Part shown: positions 4,769 to 14,718 of the stretch, piece by piece
Layout of the letters: the number at the start of each line of letters is the position of its first letter
Position numbering within the stretch: the stretch's first letter is position 1
Assembly: GCA_030688605.1 (NCBI GenBank)
Contig: JAUYJB010000051.1
Span: 304 to 64,303, forward strand
Source of the DNA: Hyphomicrobiales bacterium
GTDB taxonomy: Bacteria; Pseudomonadota; Alphaproteobacteria; Rhizobiales; NORP267
DNA length: 64,000 bases
Reading direction: 5' to 3'
Notes under the pieces: generated by a model
Seen by the model: only the letters and a program-made list of their open reading frames with translations
The model's database searches: none
Told to the model about the DNA's origin: nothing
Program-made: the position numbers and the translations under genes

Positions 4769-5377
4769 TCAGATTCCGCGGCCTTCGAGCTCCTCGGAGA
4801 GCTTTTTCTCGGCCTTGCGCACCACCGACAGATAGGGGTGAACGGCAAGCGCCCGGCGGAACGCCTTCAGCGCGCGTTCGTGGTGGCCGAGTTCCTCCAG
4901 GATCAGTCCGAGCCCTGCCAACGCACCAAAGTGGCGCGGCTCCAGGCTCAAGGTCCGCTCCACGTCGTGCAGGGAGCTTGCATAATCGTGCAAGTAAAAG
5001 AACACCGTCGCCCGCTTGTTCCAACCCTCCGCATAGCCAGGCCTGATCGTGACGACGTGGTTCAAAAGCTCGAGCGCGAGCGAATAGTCGTCCGCCTTCA
5101 TCGCCGCAATCACCCGGCTCATCAACAGATCGACCGTGTCGCTGCCCGAGTGCAGCCATAGCTGCCAGACGGCCTCCTCGATCACCGAGGCGGCCTTCTC
5201 GTCGGTGGCTGCCTTGAGCTGCTTGAGCAGCGCGTCGAGGGCGATCTCCCTGTCGTCGGCGGGTGCGGTCTGCTTGGCCGAGTCGGGTTGCTCCTCCGGC
5301 TCCGCGGCACGCGCCGCGGATGGGGCCGTCAGCAACAGCGCAAAGCAAAGTGCACAGATTCGTCTCATGCCGGTCAT
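4769..5377 (-). CDS. tetratricopeptide-repeat protein with signal peptide
   Basis: Signal-like MTGMRRICALCFALLLTAPSAARA followed by TPR-like helices (AEGWNKRATVFFYLHDYASSLHDVERTLSLEPRHFGALAGLGLILEELG). The start is 5377 or 5368. Confidence 0.7.
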   Translation of the reverse strand: MTGMRRICALCFALLLTAPSAARAAEPEEQPDSAKQTAPADDREIALDALLKQLKAATDEKAASVIEEAVWQLWLHSGSDTVDLLMSRVIAAMKADDYSLALELLNHVVTIRPGYAEGWNKRATVFFYLHDYASSLHDVERTLSLEPRHFGALAGLGLILEELGHHERALKAFRRALAVHPYLSVVRKAEKKLSEELEGRGI

Positions 5378-6045: not shown

Positions 6046-7031
6046 TGCGGTTCGTGCTCGGCAGAATGGGAGACTGGCTCGGCCTTTCGGGCGGCGGACA
6101 CGACCGCGCCCATCACCATGGTAGCGCCCACGGCGATCATAGTCACGCCCACGGCGTCGTCGACCCGTCGATCGCCGCCACCGAGCGCGGCATATGGGCC
6201 GTCAAATGGTCGTTCGTGCTGCTGGTCGCGACCGCGGCCCTGCAGGCCATCGTCGTCGTCGTCTCGGGGAGCATCGCGCTCCTGGCCGACACCATCCACA
6301 ATGTCGGCGATGCCGGCACGGCGATCCCGCTCTGGATCGCCTTCGTGCTGGCGCGGCGCAAGCCGAGCGCGCGGTTTCCCTACGGGCTTGGCCGGGTCGA
6401 GGACCTGGCCGGCGTCGCCATCGTCCTGATCATTCTCGCCAGCGCCCTCGTTGCCGGCTACGAGGCGATCGACCGGCTCGTCCACCCGCAGGTCATTCTC
6501 AACCTCGGCTGGGTCGCCGTGGCCGGCGTCATCGGCTTTCTCGGCAATGAGGCGGTTGCGGTCTTCCGCATCCGCGTCGGCCGCCAGATCGACAGTACGG
6601 CGCTGATCGCCGACGGCTATCACGCGCGCACCGACGGCCTGACCAGCCTCGCCGTGGTCCTCGGCGCGGCGGGCGTCTGGTTCGGCTATCCCCTCGCCGA
6701 CCCCGTCGTCGGCCTCGTCATCACCGCGGTCATCTTCGTCATCGTCTGGCAGTCGGCGAGAGCGGTCCTCACCCGCATGCTGGATGGCATCGACGCGGCG
6801 GTGCTCGACTTGCTTCGTCACTCGGCCGAAACCCAGCCGCGCGTCCGCTCGGTCGTCGGCGCCCGGGCGCGCTGGATCGGCCACCGGCTGCACGGCGAGC
6901 TGACGCTGAGGCTCGACGCCGCGGTGACGGCGCACGAGATCGCCGAGATCGGCGAGGCGATCCGCGCCCGTGCGCGCGGCCGTCTGCCGGCGCTGGAACG
7001 CCTGGTCATCGAGGCGGTGCCCGCCGAGTGA
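6045..7031 (+). CDS. dmeF: cation diffusion facilitator (CDF) family metal efflux transporter, DmeF-like
   Basis: His-rich N-terminus (HDRAHHHGSAHGDHSHAHG), then the CDF signature SGSIALLADTIHNVGDA and a C-terminal cytoplasmic domain. Pairing with an RcnR-like gene mirrors the rhizobial dmeRF Co/Ni efflux operon. Confidence 0.85.
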   Translation: MRFVLGRMGDWLGLSGGGHDRAHHHGSAHGDHSHAHGVVDPSIAATERGIWAVKWSFVLLVATAALQAIVVVVSGSIALLADTIHNVGDAGTAIPLWIAFVLARRKPSARFPYGLGRVEDLAGVAIVLIILASALVAGYEAIDRLVHPQVILNLGWVAVAGVIGFLGNEAVAVFRIRVGRQIDSTALIADGYHARTDGLTSLAVVLGAAGVWFGYPLADPVVGLVITAVIFVIVWQSARAVLTRMLDGIDAAVLDLLRHSAETQPRVRSVVGARARWIGHRLHGELTLRLDAAVTAHEIAEIGEAIRARARGRLPALERLVIEAVPAE

Positions 7032-7116: not shown

Positions 7117-7132
7117 ATTTCAATCCTGAAAT
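7117..7132. promoter_or_regulatory. candidate upstream activator sequence: palindrome ATTTCA-N4-TGAAAT
   Basis: ATTTCAatccTGAAAT lies about 100 bp upstream of the sigma-54 promoter. Nearly the same 20-mer (CCATTTCAnnnnTGAAATCG) recurs at 12139-12158. A further TTTCA...TGAAA palindrome sits at 7154-7172. Confidence 0.5.
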
Positions 7133-7226
7133 CGTTTTTCAGTTCGGGGCGCTTTTCAATGCAATGTTGAAATGCGTTCCGGGTCAGCGGCGGCGAGATG
7201 CGCCGGTTTCCCGCCCCTTTGGCGCC

Positions 7227-7241
7227 TGGCATGCATGTTGC
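7227..7241 (+). promoter_or_regulatory. sigma-54 (-24/-12) promoter upstream of ubiX
   Basis: cTGGCATgcatgTTGCg has GG (7228-7229) and GC (7240-7241) separated by exactly 10 nt, close to the consensus TGGCAC-N5-TTGCW. A sigma-54 activator is encoded at the end of the same cluster. Confidence 0.65.
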
Positions 7242-7402
7242 GTTCCGGTGATGCGGCGCTGACTTCCACGAAAAACGGCTCGTTTCCGCCGCCGACCATT
7301 GGTTGCAAATGCCCCCGGGTGTCGGTATGGAAAGTGAAGATCATAAAGAGCCCGAGCCGCACGCGCGGTCATCGTCGCCATAAGAAATCGTTGGGAGGAC
7401 CA

Positions 7403-7999
7403 ATGAAGAAACTCGTGGTTGGTATGACCGGTTCGACCGGCGCCATTTTCGGCGTCCGCCTGTTGCAGGTTCTGGCCGATACCGATTGCGAGACCCATCT
7501 CATCATCTCCAAATGGGCGCAGCGGACCGTCGAGCACGAGACCTCCATGACCGTTGCCGACCTCAGGGCGCTCGCCACCGAGACCTACGGCATTGCCGAC
7601 ATGGGCGCCAAGGTCTCCTCGGGCTCGTTCCGCACCGACGGCATGGTCGTCGTGCCCTGCTCGATGCGCACGGTCGCAGCCATCGCCCACGGCAATGGCG
7701 ATCACCTGGTGCACCGCGCCGCGGACGTGATCCTGAAGGAGCGGCGCAAGCTGGTGCTCGTAGCCCGCGAGACGCCGCTCAACGATATCCACCTGGAAAA
7801 CCTGCTCAAGCTGTCGCGCATGGGCGTCACCATCCTGCCGCCCATGCCGGCCTTCTACAATCAGCCGAAATCGCTCGCGGACATGGTCGACCACATCGTC
7901 ATGCGCATCCTCGACCAATTCGACATGCCGCGGGACCTGATGAAGCGCTGGGACGGCAAGGTCCGCAGCCGCAGCCAGCGCGTCCGGCCGATCAAATGA
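7403..7999 (+). CDS. ubiX: UbiX family flavin prenyltransferase (prFMN synthase)
   Basis: MKKLVVGMTGSTGAIFGVRLLQVL...MVVVPCSMRTVAAIAHG...LVLVARETPL is canonical UbiX/Pad1. A GGGAGGA Shine-Dalgarno lies just upstream of the ATG at 7403. The track start at 7172 adds an implausible leader. Confidence 0.9.
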   Translation: MKKLVVGMTGSTGAIFGVRLLQVLADTDCETHLIISKWAQRTVEHETSMTVADLRALATETYGIADMGAKVSSGSFRTDGMVVVPCSMRTVAAIAHGNGDHLVHRAADVILKERRKLVLVARETPLNDIHLENLLKLSRMGVTILPPMPAFYNQPKSLADMVDHIVMRILDQFDMPRDLMKRWDGKVRSRSQRVRPIK

Positions 8000-8074
8000 T
8001 CCGGTCGGCGGACGAACGAAGAGCCAAAGCCATCTGAAACCGAGATCGTCACAGCAAGCCAGAGAGACCACCCC

Positions 8075-9649
8075 ATGAACATCAACGCACCGAAGAAAGT
8101 GGCTAAGTCCGGTGAGATTACCAGCCTGCGCTCCACCGTCGAGTGGCTGCGCGCCAACGGCGATCTCATCGAGACCTCCAAGGAGGTCAATCCCGATTTG
8201 GAGATCACCGGACTGCAGAAGCATTTCGACGGCGGCCCGCCGATGCTGTTCGAGAATGTGAAGGGCTATCCGCACGCGCGCGCGATCACCAACCTGTTCT
8301 CCGACATGAACGTGGTCAACCGCATGTTCGGCTTCGAGAGCCCGGCCGACCGGACCCGCAAGATCGCAGCCGCCTTCAAGAAGCCGCTGCCGACCGTCGA
8401 AGTCAGCCAGAACAAGGCACCGTGCCAGGAGCATGTGATCACCGACGATGTCGACGTCAACAAGTGGATCGTGGCGATCCGCCACACGGCGCTCGAGAGC
8501 GAATTGACCATCGGCTCCGGCATCCGCTGCGTGGTCGGCGACTATTTCGACGGCGGCGCCGATGTCGGCTACAACCGAATGAACTTCCGCTGGGGCAATG
8601 TCGGCACCTTCCAGATCTCCCCCGGCTCGCATATGTGGCAGGTTATCACCAAGCACTATCGCGACGAGGAGCCGATCCCGATTACCATGTGCTTCGGCGT
8701 GCCGCCGGCATGCACGCTGCTCGCCGGCGCCGCGTTCGACTATGTGATCCTGCCCAAGGGGGCCAACGAGCTGGCGGTCGCCGGCGCCATCCAGGGCGAG
8801 CCGGTGAAGCTGGTCAAGGCGCGCACGGTCGACGCCTGGGCGATCGCCGAGTCGGAATATGTGCTGGAAGGCTATATCCACCCGCGCGACAAGCGCTACG
8901 AGACGGCCGAGTCCGAGAAGGCCGGCGTACAGGGCCGTTTCCATTTCCATCCCGAATGGGCCGGCTATATGGGCAAGGCTTACAAGGCGCCGACCTTCCA
9001 CGTCACCGCGATCACCATGCGCAAGCCGAAATCCAAGCCGATCATCTTCCCGCTCGGCGTGCACACGGCCGACGACAACAATATCGATACCACGGTGCGC
9101 GAGGCGGCGATCTTCGAGCTGTGCGAGCGGCTGCAGCCGGGCATCGTCGTCGATGCGCACATCCCCTACTGCATGACCGACTGGGGCGGCTGCATCATCC
9201 AGGTGAAGAAGCGCAACAAGATCGAGGAGGGATGGCAGCGCAACTTCCTGTCCGCGATCCTGTCCTGCTCGCAGGGCATGCGGCTGGCCATCGCCGTCAG
9301 CGAGGATGTCGACATGTATTCCATGGACGACATCATGTGGTGCCTGACGACCCGCGTGAACCCGCGCGCCGACATCCTCAATCCGCTACCGGGCGGCATC
9401 GGCCAGACCTTCATGCCGTCCGAACGGCTGACCGCCGGCGACAAGCAATGGACCGCGTCCAACACCGAGTTCGAGGGCGGCATGGGCATCGACGCCACGG
9501 TGCCGTTCGGCTACGAGTCGGACTTCCACCGGCCCGTCTATCCGGTCGACAAGGTGGACCCGGCCGACTTCTTCTCGCCCGAGGACATCGCCAACGCCAA
9601 GAGCCGCATGCATGGCTGGATGTTGTCGCTGGCGCGGACCGGCCGCTAG
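8075..9649 (+). CDS. UbiD family (prFMN-dependent) decarboxylase, 524 aa; possible acyl-CoA decarboxylase
   Basis: The N-terminal LRSTVEWLRANGDLIETSKEVNPDLEITGLQKHFDGGPPMLFENVKGYPHARAITNLF is the typical UbiD N-terminal domain. The length and the neighbours (ubiX, two CoA-transferases) fit an accessory decarboxylase rather than the ubiquinone UbiD. Confidence 0.9.
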   Translation: MNINAPKKVAKSGEITSLRSTVEWLRANGDLIETSKEVNPDLEITGLQKHFDGGPPMLFENVKGYPHARAITNLFSDMNVVNRMFGFESPADRTRKIAAAFKKPLPTVEVSQNKAPCQEHVITDDVDVNKWIVAIRHTALESELTIGSGIRCVVGDYFDGGADVGYNRMNFRWGNVGTFQISPGSHMWQVITKHYRDEEPIPITMCFGVPPACTLLAGAAFDYVILPKGANELAVAGAIQGEPVKLVKARTVDAWAIAESEYVLEGYIHPRDKRYETAESEKAGVQGRFHFHPEWAGYMGKAYKAPTFHVTAITMRKPKSKPIIFPLGVHTADDNNIDTTVREAAIFELCERLQPGIVVDAHIPYCMTDWGGCIIQVKKRNKIEEGWQRNFLSAILSCSQGMRLAIAVSEDVDMYSMDDIMWCLTTRVNPRADILNPLPGGIGQTFMPSERLTAGDKQWTASNTEFEGGMGIDATVPFGYESDFHRPVYPVDKVDPADFFSPEDIANAKSRMHGWMLSLARTGR

Positions 9650-9660
9650 GACGGCGCAAA

Positions 9661-10884
9661 ATGCAGGCCCGGCCGGAGAGGGACCCCATGCTTGCTGGTA
9701 TCAGGGTTCTCGATCTCAGCAGCCGCTTGGGTTGGCCGGCCGGGCACATCCTCACCGACCTTGGCGCCGACGTCATCAAGATCGAACCGCCGGGCGCCGA
9801 TCTTGATGACGCGGACTGGCGCCCCTTCAACGTCTCCAAGCGGCTGTTGCAGATCGACCCGGCGAGCAAGGCCGGCCGCCGGGCGATATTGGCGATGATC
9901 ACCCGGGTTGACATTCTCATCGAGACCGCCGAGCCCGGCGATCCGGCGAGCGACTGGCTTGCCCCGGAGCGGATCAGGGCGCTCAATCCCGACCTCATTC
10001 ATGTTTCCATCACCCCTTACGGGCATACCGGCCCGCGCGCCGGCTGGCGCGGCACGGACCTGGAAATCATGGCCGCCGGCGGCGCCATGGGGCTCGCCGG
10101 CGAGCCCGACGGGGAGCCTTTGCGCATCTCCGTGCCGCAGGCTCATTCATGGGCCGGCGCGCATGCCGCGAGCGGCGCCCTCATGGCGCTGTTGCACCGC
10201 CAGGCGGGCGGCGGCGGCCAGCATGTCGACGTCTCCGCCCAGGCTTCGATCATCATCGCGCTCGCCCACGCGCCGGCCTTCGCCGACATGCTGGGCGTGG
10301 CGCCGAGCCGGGCAGGCTCGCGCCTTACCGGCCGCTCGGTGCACGGCGCCGTGTTCCGCGCCTTCTGGCGCTGCAAGGACGGCTATATCAACTTCGTCCT
10401 CTATGGCGGGGTGGCGGGCTGTCGAACCAATGAGGGCCTCACCGCGTGGATGCGCGCGAAGGGGTTCGACCTCGGTCCGCTCGCAGACCTCGACTGGAGG
10501 ACCTTCGACCCGACGAGAGTTACGCAGGAAGAGGTCGATCGGATCGAGGCGGCGCTCACGGCATTCTTCGCAAGCCTGTCCAAGTTCGAGTTCCTGCAGG
10601 GCGCCTGCGAGCGCGAGATGCTCGGCTATCCGGTCTCGAACGTCGCCGACATCGCCGCCGACCCGCAGCTCGACGCGCGCGGCTTCTGGCAGGATCTGGC
10701 CTTGCCCGGCGGCGGCAGCGAGCGCCACTGCGGCGCGTTCTACATCGCCGACGGCGCGCGCCCCGGCTTGCGCAATCCGGCGCTCGACGGCAGCGGAGAG
10801 CCCCACGAAATCCTCAAGGACCTTGAATTTTCGGATGCCGAGATCGAGGTCCTGCTCGACAAGAGCGCGGCGGGCGCGGCATGA
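9661..10884 (+). CDS. CaiB/BaiF family III CoA-transferase, subunit/paralogue 1 (catalytic Asp apparently replaced)
   Basis: The C-terminal third of the chimeric track ORF 8143..10884. GIRVLDLSSRLGWPAGHILTDLGADVIKIEPPG is the family III N-terminal motif. The start is ATG 9661 (AGGA upstream) or ATG 9688. The stop overlaps the next gene (ATGA at 10881-10884). Confidence 0.85.
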   Translation: MQARPERDPMLAGIRVLDLSSRLGWPAGHILTDLGADVIKIEPPGADLDDADWRPFNVSKRLLQIDPASKAGRRAILAMITRVDILIETAEPGDPASDWLAPERIRALNPDLIHVSITPYGHTGPRAGWRGTDLEIMAAGGAMGLAGEPDGEPLRISVPQAHSWAGAHAASGALMALLHRQAGGGGQHVDVSAQASIIIALAHAPAFADMLGVAPSRAGSRLTGRSVHGAVFRAFWRCKDGYINFVLYGGVAGCRTNEGLTAWMRAKGFDLGPLADLDWRTFDPTRVTQEEVDRIEAALTAFFASLSKFEFLQGACEREMLGYPVSNVADIAADPQLDARGFWQDLALPGGGSERHCGAFYIADGARPGLRNPALDGSGEPHEILKDLEFSDAEIEVLLDKSAAGAA

Positions 10885-12101
10885 GCGACACGCCACAGGC
10901 GCTGGCGGGCGTCAAGGTCGTCGAGTTCGGCGCCTATGCCGCGGGCCCGCACATCGGCAAGCTGCTCGGCAATTTCGGCGCCGTCGTCGCGCACGTGGAA
11001 TCGTTCCAGCGCCCGGACGGCTTTCGACTGCAATATCCGCCCTACAAGGACGGCGTCGTCGGGGTCAACCGCAGCGGCTGCTTCTCGATATTCAACGATT
11101 CCAAATATGGCGTCACCGTCGACGTCAAGAACCCGGCGGGCCTCGAGATCGCGCGGCGGCTGATGGACTGGGCCGACGTGGTGATCGAGAATATGCGACC
11201 CGGGGTCATGGACCGCATCGGCCTCGGCTATGCGGTGGCGTGCAGGACGAACCCCGGCCTCGTCATGCTTTCGACCTGCAATATGGGCCAGACCGGCCCG
11301 CGCGCCCAGACGCCGGGATTCGGCACCCAATTGTCGTCGCTGGCCGGATTCTGCGGCGCCATCGGCGAGCCGGACGGCTCGCCGATGCTTCTCTACGGCC
11401 CCTATATCGACTTCGTCGCCTCGATGATGGGATCGTCCGCCGTGCTCGCCGCGCTGGCGCGCCGCCGGGCCACCGGCAAGGGGACGCTGATCGATCTTTC
11501 GCAATATGAGACCGGCCTTCATTTCATGGCCGGCGCACTGTTGGCCTATCACCGCGACGGCGTCATCGCCGAGCGCCGGGGAAACCGCGACGACAAGGCC
11601 GCCCCGCACGGCGCCTACCGCTGCCGCGAGGACCGCTGGCTCGCTCTGTCGTGCTGGTCGGACGCCGAGTTCTCGGCCCTTGCCGAAACGCTCGGCAAAC
11701 CGGCGCTTGCCGCGGATGCGCGCTTCGCCGGCGCCGAAGAAAGGCTCAAAAATGTCAAGGCGCTCGATGCCGCTCTTGCGCCCCTGTTGCGCGAGCGCGA
11801 CGCGGAAGCCGCCGCCGAGACGCTGCAGGGGGCGGGCATCGCCGCCTATCCGGTGAACAGCATGGCCGACCTCTTCACCGACCCGCAGCTTGTCGAGCGC
11901 AGGCTCTGGCGCCGGCGCGAGCATGCGGAAATCGGCCAGCAGAGCTATGAAATGCCGGGCTTCGCGCTCACCGCGACCCCCGGCGACGTGACCCGCGCCG
12001 CGCCCATTCTCGGCGGCGACAACGAAACCGTGTTCAAACGGTTTCTCGGCCTGTCCGACGCCGAGTATGCCGCCTACGCCGAAAAGGGCGCCTTCGATTA
12101 G
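10881..12101 (+). CDS. CaiB/BaiF family III CoA-transferase, subunit/paralogue 2 (retains Asp in the GPYIDF context)
   Basis: 406-aa ORF. GVKVVEFGAYAAGPHIGKLLGNFGAVVAHVE, MRPGVMDRIGLGY and LLYGPYIDFVASMMGSSAVLAAL are typical of family III CoA-transferases. Confidence 0.9.
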   Translation: MSDTPQALAGVKVVEFGAYAAGPHIGKLLGNFGAVVAHVESFQRPDGFRLQYPPYKDGVVGVNRSGCFSIFNDSKYGVTVDVKNPAGLEIARRLMDWADVVIENMRPGVMDRIGLGYAVACRTNPGLVMLSTCNMGQTGPRAQTPGFGTQLSSLAGFCGAIGEPDGSPMLLYGPYIDFVASMMGSSAVLAALARRRATGKGTLIDLSQYETGLHFMAGALLAYHRDGVIAERRGNRDDKAAPHGAYRCREDRWLALSCWSDAEFSALAETLGKPALAADARFAGAEERLKNVKALDAALAPLLRERDAEAAAETLQGAGIAAYPVNSMADLFTDPQLVERRLWRRREHAEIGQQSYEMPGFALTATPGDVTRAAPILGGDNETVFKRFLGLSDAEYAAYAEKGAFD

Positions 12102-12140
12102 GCGGCGACCGGCGAACGGGCCCTTTCGAACCCCGCGGCC

Positions 12141-12156
12141 ATTTCAGATCTGAAAT
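12141..12156. promoter_or_regulatory. perfect 16-bp palindrome ATTTCAGATCTGAAAT (same motif as 7117-7132)
   Basis: Located between the CoA-transferase stop (12101) and the activator gene start. It is AT-rich, so it is not a GC-stem terminator. Its flanks CC...CG are shared with the 7115-7134 copy. Confidence 0.45.
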
Positions 12157-12246
12157 CGGCGCCCGCAACATGTCCCCGCCACACCGCGATTTTAGGCGGT
12201 TTTCCACATAGGATTGAATCCGGTCCCTGCCGCGCCTAGACTGGCC

Positions 12247-12262
12247 TTTTCAAACGTGAAAA
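12247..12262. promoter_or_regulatory. third copy of the TTTCA-N4-TGAAA palindrome (TTTTCAaacgTGAAAA)
   Basis: Perfect 6-bp arms with a 4-nt spacer, ending 12 nt upstream of the ATG at 12274 of the sigma-54 activator. This position suggests autoregulation. Confidence 0.45.
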
Positions 12263-12273
12263 AGGTTCCGGCC

Positions 12274-13881
12274 ATGGCTGACGGCAAGGAGGGGGTGGAG
12301 GTTCTGCGCCGCGCGCTGCCTTTGATCTCGGATGTGGCGGGCGGCGTGGCGATGGTGACCGACGGCGAGGGGTGCTGTCTTCACGCGGTCGATTTCGACG
12401 GCGACCCGCGCCCGGATCTCATTGGCCAGGTCAACGCGACCTGCCGCGACGCGGCGGCAAAGGGCAAGCCCATCGGCGCCGTCTCCGGCGAGTTCAATCA
12501 CCGCTTCTTCGCCATACCCATAGGCGGCTGTGTGCTCGCCGCCTCCAATGAGCGCCGCGCCGACCGCCAGAGCCGGCTGTTCGAGACCCTGAAGGAGACG
12601 TTGCCGCTGATCGCCACGGTGGCCGGCGGCGAGGCGGTGCTGTTCGACCATGGCGGCCGCCGCCTGCTTGCCGCCAATCCGCGCATGAAGGAGGCAAGCC
12701 CCGGCACCGGCGAAGTCTCGGAAAGCTGCCTCAAGGTGATGCGCTCGGGCAAGCCGGACATCAGCCCGTCGACGACCGAGATCGGCGCCACCGCGGTGCG
12801 CATCCCGATCTGCGCGGCCTTCGGCTTCGGCTTCAACAACGCCGAGTCGATCCGCCAGCGGGCCAAGCTCCTGAGCCAGGTCAGGCGCGAGCGGGCGGCG
12901 AAATATTCATGGGACGACGTGGTCGGCATCGACGGCGCCTTGAGGGCTCCCTTCGACGCGGCACGGCGAGCGGCGGCAACCCGTTCGCCGGTGATCATCT
13001 ACGGCGAAAGCGGCACCGGCAAGGAGCTGTTCGCCCAGGCGATCCACAATTCCTCGCCGCGCGCAGACAAGCCGTTCGTTGCCATCAACTGCGCGGCGCT
13101 GCCGGAAACGCTCGTGGAGACCACCTTCTTCGGCTATCTGGAAGGCGCGTTTACCGGCGCCCGGCGCGGCGGCCAGAAGGGCCTGTTCGAGCAGGCCGAC
13201 GGCGGCACGCTGCTGCTCGACGAGGTCAGCGAGATGCCGCTCGAGTTCCAGGCCAAGCTGTTGCGCACCTTGCAGGAGCGCGAGGTCACCCCTATCGGTG
13301 GCGCCAGGCCCGTTGCGGTCGACGTCCGGGTTATCTGCACCAGCAACCGGGACCTTGCCCAATGCGTCGCCGACGGCACCTGGCGGCCCGACCTGTTCTA
13401 CCGGCTCAACGTGGTCGACATTCACCTGCCGCCCCTGCGTGCGCACAAGGAGGATATCCCGGTGCTGGTCGAGGCGATCCGCGCCAAGCTGTCGGACCGC
13501 GACGGGCGGACCCTGGCGCCGATCCCGGCGCCGGTCGTGGAAAACCTCAAGGGCTATGACTGGCCGGGCAATGTACGCGAGCTGCAGAACGTGCTCGACC
13601 GGGCCTATAATCTCGCGGGCGACGGGCCGATCGCTATCCCGCACCTGCCGGTCTTTCTGGCCGCCCGGGCGCAGGCGGCGCCCGCCGGCGCGAGCGGCGA
13701 GGCCGACACAAGGCTGAGCACGCTGCTTTCGGCGACCGAGCGGCAGCTTCTGCTCGGCACGCTTGAGCGCTGCAACGGCAACCGCACCCGCGCGGCCAAG
13801 CAGCTGGGGATCAGCGTCACCACCCTGTGGCGCAGGCTGCGCAAGATCGAGCGGGCAGGGGGACGCCCGGCGCCGCGCTGA
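12274..13881 (+). CDS. sigma-54-dependent transcriptional activator (bEBP) with duplicated N-terminal sensor module
   Basis: AAA+ core with Walker A GESGTGKE, the sigma-54 contact loop GAFTGA (YLEGAFTGARRG), DEVSEMP, WPGNVRELQN, and a C-terminal Fis-type HTH (RTRAAKQLGISVTTLWRRLRK). The ATG at 12274 is preferred over the TTG at 12214. Confidence 0.9.
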   Translation: MADGKEGVEVLRRALPLISDVAGGVAMVTDGEGCCLHAVDFDGDPRPDLIGQVNATCRDAAAKGKPIGAVSGEFNHRFFAIPIGGCVLAASNERRADRQSRLFETLKETLPLIATVAGGEAVLFDHGGRRLLAANPRMKEASPGTGEVSESCLKVMRSGKPDISPSTTEIGATAVRIPICAAFGFGFNNAESIRQRAKLLSQVRRERAAKYSWDDVVGIDGALRAPFDAARRAAATRSPVIIYGESGTGKELFAQAIHNSSPRADKPFVAINCAALPETLVETTFFGYLEGAFTGARRGGQKGLFEQADGGTLLLDEVSEMPLEFQAKLLRTLQEREVTPIGGARPVAVDVRVICTSNRDLAQCVADGTWRPDLFYRLNVVDIHLPPLRAHKEDIPVLVEAIRAKLSDRDGRTLAPIPAPVVENLKGYDWPGNVRELQNVLDRAYNLAGDGPIAIPHLPVFLAARAQAAPAGASGEADTRLSTLLSATERQLLLGTLERCNGNRTRAAKQLGISVTTLWRRLRKIERAGGRPAPR

Positions 13882-13902
13882 CTTGGGGCCCATTGCGACC
13901 GG

Positions 13903-14718
13903 CTACGGCCTTGCGACGACGATGTGGGCGCGGGTCGGCAGCGTGACGCCTTCGCCGGTCAGGTAAGGGCCGAGGATCGCTTCGACATCGGCGAGGAAGT
14001 CGCGCTTGCGCGCCTCGAGAAGCTGAGCGAGCGCGTGGCGCGATGCAGGGGCACCTGCCGCGACGCCGTCCACGAAAGCGGAAACGGAGGGAAAACGCGC
14101 CTGCCGCTCTTCCGCGTGCACCGTAATTCCGCGGAACCCAGCCTGAAGCATCAACGCCTTGACCCTTTCCTTCTCGCCGAGGGAGAAGGGGCGCGATGCC
14201 GGCGCGATGTTCTGCCGCTCCAGCGCCCGGGCGATCGCGTAATGGCCCTTATTGTGCTCGATCGAGCACCACATGCTCGCGATGAGCCGGCCCGAGGGCT
14301 TGAGGACGCGGCGCAGATCGCTCAGGCCCGCGGCCGGGTCGGAGAAGAATTGCGGACCCTGCAGGCACAGGCAGAGATCGAAGGTCCGATCGGCGAAGGG
14401 AAGTTCGAGCACACTTTCGCAATGCCATTCGGCAACGATCCCCTCTTGCTCCGCGATCCGGCGCGCCACCGCGACCATGCCCGGGTCGTTGTCGACGCCC
14501 ACCAGCCGGCCCGCCGGCATGACGTGCGGCGCGGCGAGGCGGACGCCGATGCCGGTCCCGCAGGGCGCATCGAGCACCGTCTCGCCAGGCTCGGGCGCGG
14601 CGATGTCGACGGCGCGCGCCGCCCAGGGGCCGAAAATCCGCGTTACCAGATGGGTTTCATAGGCTTCGGCCGCCGCTTCCGCCGCACCGATCGCGCTCGC
14701 CGTCTCGCCGTCCCGCAT
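13903..14718 (-). CDS. class I SAM-dependent methyltransferase
   Basis: Motif I VLDAPCGTGIG, followed by VGVDNDPGMV and RVLKPSGRL, as in Methyltransf_11/25-like proteins. Confidence 0.8.
   Translation of the reverse strand: MRDGETASAIGAAEAAAEAYETHLVTRIFGPWAARAVDIAAPEPGETVLDAPCGTGIGVRLAAPHVMPAGRLVGVDNDPGMVAVARRIAEQEGIVAEWHCESVLELPFADRTFDLCLCLQGPQFFSDPAAGLSDLRRVLKPSGRLIASMWCSIEHNKGHYAIARALERQNIAPASRPFSLGEKERVKALMLQAGFRGITVHAEERQARFPSVSAFVDGVAAGAPASRHALAQLLEARKRDFLADVEAILGPYLTGEGVTLPTRAHIVVARP

Follow-up and report, generated by a model that had tools for sequence, protein, structure and literature searches.

Three perfect TTTCA-N4-TGAAA palindromes in the genome of a Hyphomicrobiales bacterium are, with a probability of about 85 %, the DNA sites of a sigma-54-dependent activator encoded in the same gene cluster, as judged from sequence comparison across related loci. 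The palindromes are located in a stretch of 64,000 nucleotides (the window; positions 304 to 64,303 of contig JAUYJB010000051.1, GenBank assembly GCA_030688605.1), which also harbours a predicted operon for anaerobic degradation of the plasticiser o-phthalate (ubiX-pcd-sptAB) and, directly downstream of it, the gene for the activator, a bacterial enhancer-binding protein (bEBP). The original prediction, made from the letters of the window, had described three copies of the palindrome as marks of a private regulon of this activator. All three are present (sites 1–3 in Table 1), and the flanks CCATTTCA....TGAAATCG are indeed common to sites 1 and 2.

The clustering of the palindromes is far beyond chance. 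Three copies are present in the window versus none in each of 100 dinucleotide-preserving shuffles, and a pattern search of the complete assembly (3,765,113 bp, i.e., 3.77 Mb, in 178 contigs; 64.7 % G+C; 100 % complete by markers) retrieved exactly the same three matches, all within 5.2 kb. The supposed restriction of the motif to the regulatory regions of this cluster thereby holds for the whole assembly. By our arithmetic, the chance that three random hits in 3.77 Mb all fall within 5.2 kb is of the order of 1e-5. Other spacer lengths (N0–N15) yielded 0–4 scattered matches per length across the whole genome, and the 36 sites with one mismatch are all located on other contigs, none of them on that of the window.

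Table 1 Palindromes, promoters and genes of the cluster (positions refer to the window)
Feature	Sequence and coordinates	Strand	Remarks
Site 1	ATTTCAatccTGAAAT 7117-7132; core TTTCA-atcc-TGAAA 7118-7131	.	perfect; predicted distal upstream activating site (UAS-d)
Proximal upstream activating site (UAS-p)	ATGCA-atgt-TGAAA 7159-7172	.	predicted; degenerate N4 site within N9 palindrome
Sigma-54 (-24/-12) promoter of ubiX-pcd-sptAB	TGGCATGCATGTTGCG 7227-7242; GG 7228-7229, GC 7240-7241	+	predicted; equivalents in relatives
ubiX-type flavin prenyltransferase	7403-7999	+	Pfam Flavoprotein, NCBIfam UbiX family; predicted to make prenylated flavin mononucleotide (prFMN) for Pcd
Phthaloyl-CoA decarboxylase (Pcd, UbiD family)	8075-9649	+	full-length match to 8pmk, 8oz5
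Family-III CoA-transferase subunits (sptAB-like pair)	9688-10884 and 10881-12101, overlapping	+	Pfam CoA_transf_3, both
Site 2	ATTTCAgatcTGAAAT 12141-12156; core TTTCA-gatc-TGAAA 12142-12155	.	perfect; probably auxiliary operator (low confidence)
Sigma-70-type promoter of activator gene	12214-12242: TTGAAT 12214-12219, 17-nt spacer, TAGACT 12237-12242	+	predicted; conserved hexamers
Site 3	TTTTCAaacgTGAAAA 12247-12262; core T-TTTCA-aacg-TGAAA-A 12248-12261	.	perfect; predicted operator before activator gene
Sigma-54 activator (bEBP), 535 aa	12274-13881	+	AAA+ with GAFTGA, Fis-type helix-turn-helix (HTH), predicted tandem PAS/Cache-like sensor

Co-occurrence of the palindrome with the activator

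Among 80 loci from reference genomes examined because they encode relatives of Pcd, three (L005, L017 and L021) also encode a relative of the activator. These three loci, four metagenome loci retrieved by a search with the sensor domain and eight further contigs of the family constituted the comparison set of 15 activator-bearing loci. Together (208 kb) they contain 15 perfect sites versus 0.1 expected from shuffles, while no perfect site is present in the 1.115 Mb of the 77 pcd loci devoid of a bEBP gene. Since the motif is present together with the bEBP and absent from pcd loci without it, it follows the regulator rather than the enzymes. If up to one mismatch is allowed, 14 of the 15 activator-bearing loci carry the motif, the sole exception (L087) being a contig of 3 kb, which stops short of any target promoter.

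In the relatives, the sites always either precede a sigma-54 promoter or stand immediately in front of the activator gene. Equivalents of the predicted promoter of the window (TGGCA-N6-TTGC) follow the palindromes in the three pcd loci L005, L017 and L021 as well as in L085, L091, L092, L093 and L095, and close variants do so in L094 and L096. Hence the palindromes occur with their cognate activator and are kept at orthologous promoters, the arms being conserved and the spacers varying, as would be expected for co-inherited upstream activating sites (UAS).

The activator-bearing loci belong to Rhodospirillaceae (Alphaproteobacteria), Geobacter, Desulfuromonadaceae (Desulfuromonadales), metagenome-assembled genomes (MAGs) of Negativicutes and unbinned metagenome contigs. 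Their gene contexts vary, comprising (i) a CoA-transferase type, (ii) a type with CoA-ligase and TAXI-TRAP transporter, and (iii) two unrelated pathways. In loci of the second type (L085, 542–6922; L090, 1275–5870), which represent one lineage, the putatively regulated operon consists of pcd, a gene for an AMP-binding CoA ligase and those for a TAXI-TRAP transporter, without a CoA-transferase pair. The combination of pcd with a CoA ligase corresponds to the ATP-dependent activation known from sulfate reducers (PMC13040137). The unrelated pathways are found with distant paralogues of the activator in a Negativicutes MAG (L092, 9630–10940) and a metagenome contig (L096, 2446–2615), the N-terminal domains of which are 35–41 % identical; here, palindromes are located upstream of sigma-54 promoters before genes for an MCP-signal protein, a 2Fe-2S ferredoxin and a B12-binding/PrpF/MutL-type cluster.

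The domain composition of the activator is that of a bEBP. Its AAA+ domain (PF00158, Sigma54_activat; E 1.6e-64) contains the Walker A/B motifs (GESGTGKE, LLLDE) and the GAFTGA loop, all of which are invariant in the alignment of relatives, and its closest relatives in the PDB are NifA, ZraR, FlrC and NtrC. The HTH domain (PF02954, HTH_8; E 1.9e-13; residues 487–524) is of the Fis type, and the pattern of its recognition helix LGISVTTLWRRL, i.e., LGIS(V/T)TTLWRR(L/M), is near-invariant across 16 of 16 proteins. The required sigma factor is encoded in the same genome by rpoN (PF04552, 233.6 bits; open frame of 519 aa on contig C45).

Residues 1–215 of the activator (12274–12918 of the window) could not be assigned to a Pfam family, not even at E≤10. 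An AlphaFold2 model based on the alignment of 16 sequences (mean predicted local distance difference test score, pLDDT, 89.2) displays two alpha-beta-beta-alpha-beta-beta-beta modules, and the two halves represent an internal tandem duplication (34 % identity over 74 aa, E 1e-7). The sensor is predicted to be an unclassified tandem PAS/Cache-like module. Foldseek relates the model to tandem PAS/Cache/GAF proteins (dCache ligand-binding domains, the N-terminus of DhaR, PpsR), the fold thus resembling that of PAS/GAF sensors of the DhaR, NifA and PpsR type; the template modelling (TM) scores are, however, low (0.25–0.33), and there is no match to a sequence family. The sensor family is small, comprising 54 clusters among 5.8 billion proteins. 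As its effector in the present cluster, o-phthalate or a close metabolite of the pathway is most likely, and for the pcd-linked members o-phthalate suggests itself.

Site geometry at the predicted target promoter and at the activator gene

The center of site 1 is located 102.5 bp from the T of TGGCATGCATGTTGCG, in agreement with the approximately 100 bp noted originally, and corresponds to about -128 relative to the predicted transcription start. The earlier interpretation of the sites as enhancer-like UAS of the bEBP fits the co-occurrence, the uniqueness in the genome, the promoter, the presence of rpoN and the domains of the activator. A related palindrome with a longer spacer (TTTCA-N9-TGAAA, 7154–7172), to which attention had also been drawn, does exist; however, this form has three scattered matches in the genome and is not significant by itself. 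It is best read as a degenerate N4 site (UAS-p) plus an additional TTTCA, since the position of the N4 site equals that of the proximal sites in L005 and L085. UAS-p lies 41 bp from UAS-d, with its center 61.5 bp from the -24 T. In L005, the two sites at the ubiX promoter are centered at 101.5 and 62.5 bp, and those at a second promoter 3′ of the activator gene at 101.5 and 61.5 bp; the proximal site of L085 is found at 62.5 bp and the site of L093 at 102.5 bp.

Across all promoters examined (that of the window and 11 others), the sites are positioned 38–167 bp upstream of the -24 element, and at the promoter of the window inverted repeats are found within the range of about 60–200 bp 5′ of a GG-N10-GC promoter that characterizes UAS. 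The site–promoter distances are periodic at 10.5–10.6 bp (Rayleigh R = 0.81, n = 26 sites), which equals the helical repeat of DNA. If only one proximal site per promoter is considered, the phasing is retained (n = 10, p ~1e-4), such p-values being optimistic, as the comparison loci are partly related and not independent. No consensus for IHF was found between UAS and promoter in the window; together with the helical phasing, this fits contacts that depend on the face of the helix.

Two overlapping sigma-54-like elements 7 bp apart are present in front of ubiX, TGGCGCCTGGCATGCA at 7220–7235 and TGGCATGCATGTTGCG starting at 7227. The former is less likely to be the real promoter, because only the latter reproduces the site–promoter distances of L005. 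In L005 itself, a second UAS pair (13836–13960; GTTCA-agtt-TGAAA and TTTCA-gaaa-TGAAA, 40 bp apart) is located 3′ of the activator gene and followed by the sigma-54 promoter TGGCACGGCAATTGCG at the same distances as in case of the ubiX promoter. By its sequence, the predicted regulon of L005 includes a second operon, the contig ending before the target gene.

The second group of sites is located at the activator gene. Site 3 begins 4 nt 3′ of the TAGACT hexamer of the predicted sigma-70-type promoter and spans the point at which transcription of the gene is predicted to start; on the right, its arm extends into the Shine-Dalgarno sequence AAAGG, 12 nt before the ATG. Site 2 lies 40 nt 3′ of the sptB stop codon, at about -102 from the predicted start of the activator gene. 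Alignment with L089, the activator of which is 87 % identical to that of the window, revealed substitutions and indels throughout the intergenic region (170–300 bp) except for four conserved islands, i.e., site 2, TTGAAT, TAGACT and site 3. The spacers of sites 2 and 3 differ between the two loci, and the arms are kept, the counterpart of site 2 in L089 being TTTCA-catc-TGAAATCG. Sites 2 and 3 are 106 bp (window, center to center) or 125 bp (L089) apart, both distances being near whole helical turns. The arrangement at site 3 recurs in L089, L005, L084, L085 and L086 as a -10-like box, 3–4 nt, TTTTCA-N4-TGAAAA-GG, about 10 nt and the start codon. In L090, a site with one mismatch (TCTCA-ttca-TGAAA) occupies the equivalent position upstream of the gene, with no -10 box clearly recognisable there.

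This placement agrees with the original suggestion that the activator autoregulates its own gene, the sign of which can be narrowed to probable autorepression, since site 3 extends over the start region of the predicted and conserved sigma-70-type promoter. The activator would thus probably repress its own transcription via site 3. The role of site 2 as an auxiliary operator is assigned with low confidence. Neither the interval between sites 2 and 3 nor the opposite strand offers a sigma-54 promoter with correct GG-N10-GC spacing, and this possibility was dismissed. Likewise rejected was an activator start at TTG (12214), which would place site 3 within coding sequence: in L005 an in-frame TAG directly precedes the ATG, the alignment of the window with L089 contains indels 5′ of the ATG, and the TTG belongs to the predicted -35 box.

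In L086, a decayed operator (TTTCA-aatt-TGAAT, 5083–5096) directly follows the transporter gene and shares its upstream flank with L084; it is succeeded by about 1.9 kb of inserted DNA and then by a fresh operator, which is embedded in a 28-bp perfect palindrome (6970–6997) directly before the activator gene.

From these arrangements, the following mechanism is proposed. Dimers of the activator would bind via the C-terminal Fis-type HTH to UAS-d and UAS-p, which are on the same helix face as the -24/-12 promoter. Upon reception of a signal by the sensor, the AAA+ domains would assemble and remodel the sigma-54 RNA polymerase, which in turn would switch on ubiX-pcd-sptAB. Occupation of site 3 would repress transcription of the activator gene, with site 2, 106 bp further upstream, possibly assisting by cooperative binding or looping.

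Weighing of alternative explanations and comparison with known regulators

The box of FNR is TTGAT-N4-ATCAA and that of CRP TGTGA-N6-TCACA, and both act at many promoters per genome. With its 14 bp, 5-bp arms and 4-bp spacer, the present palindrome shares the geometry of FNR/CRP-family boxes. It may therefore be asked if the palindromes are operators of another factor, such as a CRP/FNR-type regulator or a phthalate-specific repressor, with the bEBP binding other DNA. A Crp-family gene is indeed found near one related locus (L095), and oxygen control would be plausible in case of Pcd, an oxygen-sensitive enzyme of anaerobic metabolism. However, the arms (TTTCA/TGAAA) differ from those of the FNR and CRP boxes, and many sites would be expected of a global regulator, while the genome contains three in a single cluster. 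Furthermore, no other regulator gene is common to the motif-bearing loci, the 77 pcd clusters without bEBP are also without the motif, and the motif stands directly before the bEBP gene irrespective of its neighbours and is phased to sigma-54 promoters. Taken together, these observations render operators of another factor unlikely.

Still less probable is a function of the palindromes as RNA hairpins, with site 2 acting as a stabiliser or weak terminator at the 3′ end of sptB and site 3 as a hairpin in the 5′ untranslated region masking the ribosome-binding site. Folding energies of -10.4 kcal/mol for site 2 with its flanks and -6.5 kcal/mol for site 3 are predicted, and site 3 does overlap the Shine-Dalgarno sequence. 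Site 1, on the other hand, is located upstream of its promoter, where it would not be transcribed, and folds at only -2.4 kcal/mol, the stems of sites 1 and 3 both being weak. There is neither a U-tract terminator at the palindromes nor an Rfam match at E≤0.1. What is conserved across the relatives is the sequence of the arms and not pairing by compensatory changes, and helical phasing is a property of DNA rather than RNA. A functionless chance cluster of A+T-rich palindromes, to which the shortness of the motif and the lower G+C content of the intergenic regions (0.60–0.61 versus 0.65 for the genome) might have contributed, is practically negligible in view of the complete absence from shuffles, the confinement of all three genome matches to 5.2 kb and the recurrence at equivalent positions in 14 other loci of different phyla.

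Several observations count against the assignment of the palindromes to the activator or restrict it. The comparison loci are mostly MAGs or metagenome contigs and some of them are interrelated, so that the statistics overstate their independence. The HTH is invariant, so that co-variation between motif and protein cannot be demonstrated. At individual sites, (i) UAS-p of the window has two arm mismatches, (ii) the sigma-70-type promoter agrees with the consensus in only 8 of 12 positions, which is below the threshold of a simple scan, and (iii) a counterpart of site 2 is present only in the close relative L089, the more distant loci being without one. No terminator was found between sptB and the activator gene; read-through from the sigma-54 promoter could therefore add positive feedback to the proposed autorepression. 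Finally, the motif stands beside other pathways in L092 and L096, so that the effector is not necessarily phthalate throughout the family.

As sites of the activator, the palindromes conform to the classical bEBP systems. NtrC at glnAp2, NifA (TGT-N10-ACA), DctD and XylR/DmpR bind as dimers via Fis-type HTH domains to at least two inverted repeats about 60–170 bp 5′ of the -24/-12 promoter, and activation depends on the face of the helix between enhancer and promoter. Fis-type HTH, inverted-repeat sites upstream of -24/-12 and helix-face dependence are shared features of the system proposed here. It differs in its sensor, which is an unclassified, predicted tandem PAS/Cache-like module in place of a receiver, GAF or V4R domain, in the motif TTTCA-N4-TGAAA, in the absence of an IHF consensus between UAS and promoter, and in its target, an anaerobic pathway for a xenobiotic.

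Autogenous control is likewise known from XylR (Pu/Pr, TOL plasmid) and PspF, which lower their own sigma-70-dependent transcription via sites overlapping that promoter. In L017 and L021, a similar arrangement is found, the activator gene being divergent from the operon with the UAS array beside its promoter. In contrast, the activator gene is located downstream of the operon or transporter in the window, L005, L084–L086, L089 and L090, with a dedicated single operator before the gene, directly after the -10 box where this is recognisable; a further site, 106–125 bp upstream, is present in the window and L089. Pathway-specific regulators encoded beside genes for phthalate isomers, and of interest for biosensors, are TphR and IphR of Comamonas (PMC13040137). 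IphR has been described as repressing, and TphR as activating by recruitment of RNA polymerase; both regulators serve aerobic oxygenase pathways, unlike the present sigma-54 AAA+ activator, which is predicted to serve an anaerobic, CoA-dependent pathway.

Putatively regulated genes, extent of the regulon and wider meaning

The predicted target operon represents, by sequence, an anaerobic o-phthalate module, as the Pcd orthologue, UbiX and two family-III CoA-transferase subunits are encoded in one cluster. Pcd of the window matches the chains of solved phthaloyl-CoA decarboxylases (8pmk/8oz5) over its full length (953 bits, E 2e-286). The CoA-transferase pair is likewise located 3′ of pcd in Aromatoleum and many other loci, and the gene order of the window agrees with that of the Aromatoleum loci. 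Such a module of succinyl-CoA:phthalate CoA-transferase, phthaloyl-CoA decarboxylase and UbiX is known from Thauera, Aromatoleum and 'Azoarcus' (PMC13040137). Phthaloyl-CoA is very labile, and its conversion is thought to require very high levels of Pcd (PMC13040137).

The regulon looks private to this cluster, because no further credible site or pair of sites is present in the genome. With respect to nearby GG-N10-GC promoters, the 36 one-mismatch sites all lack a convincing context; three candidates on contigs C78, C130 and C132 were rejected, since they are located within coding regions or at too short a distance from the promoter-like element. The only other pair genome-wide (a site with up to one mismatch and one with up to two mismatches within 60 bp), located on contig C99, was discarded as chance-looking; it overlaps a ribosome-binding site and start codon and lacks a sigma-54 promoter. 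The sensor domain is present as a single copy in the genome and absent from all 40 genomes examined that belong to the same family or order. Since, moreover, members of the sensor family occur scattered across several phyla, horizontal transfer is the probable origin of the module.

Neither the motif nor a sigma-54 regulator of anaerobic phthalate genes was found in the open literature, which excludes most subscription journals, and no paper on the control of anaerobic phthalate genes was retrieved from it. A review of phthalate degradation from 2026 names no sigma-54 regulator (PMC13040137). The proposed mechanism is a textbook bEBP/enhancer circuit with autogenous control and as such extends rather than changes current understanding; its novelty lies in the motif, in the unclassified sensor and the subfamily of activators that carries it, in the strict phasing and in the connection with anaerobic phthalate degradation. 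For this pathway, considered to be of recent evolutionary origin, a concrete regulator, operator, promoter and geometry can thus be put forward.

Somewhat speculatively, anaerobic, CoA-dependent degradation of o-phthalate might have its first regulator in this activator, which would directly sense o-phthalate, phthaloyl-CoA or a monoester via its hitherto unclassified, cytoplasmic tandem PAS/Cache-like module and be part of a portable switch that spread horizontally with the pathway; this extended scenario is put at a little under even odds. If true, activator, 14-bp operator and phased sigma-54 promoter would form a compact switch, tightly off and strongly on, that has spread together with a xenobiotic pathway, reaching Alphaproteobacteria, Desulfuromonadales and other lineages, and constitutes a ready-made biosensor part. 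Biosensors for o-phthalate are listed as a need in the review (PMC13040137), for which the circuit offers candidate parts.

Regulation of the enzyme clusters appears to be modular. In L004, encoding a Pcd 89 % identical to that of the window, the region upstream of ubiX (850–900) contains neither a sigma-54 promoter nor TTTCA-N4-TGAAA, and instead a different palindrome, TTAGATATCTAA. Comparison with the window indicates that nearly identical enzyme clusters carry different regulatory modules and are served by different regulators.

The genome harbours a second pcd-like gene (contig C151, 40773–42305), the product of which is 68 % identical to Pcd of the window. No ubiX or spt neighbours were detected by the queries used, and neither a palindrome nor a sigma-54 promoter is present within 6 kb; the paralogue is therefore placed outside the regulon. 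As on C151, pcd-like genes without CoA-transferases are found in many loci of Xanthobacteraceae, and because of this absence of CoA-transferases the pcd-like genes of both kinds may serve a different substrate.

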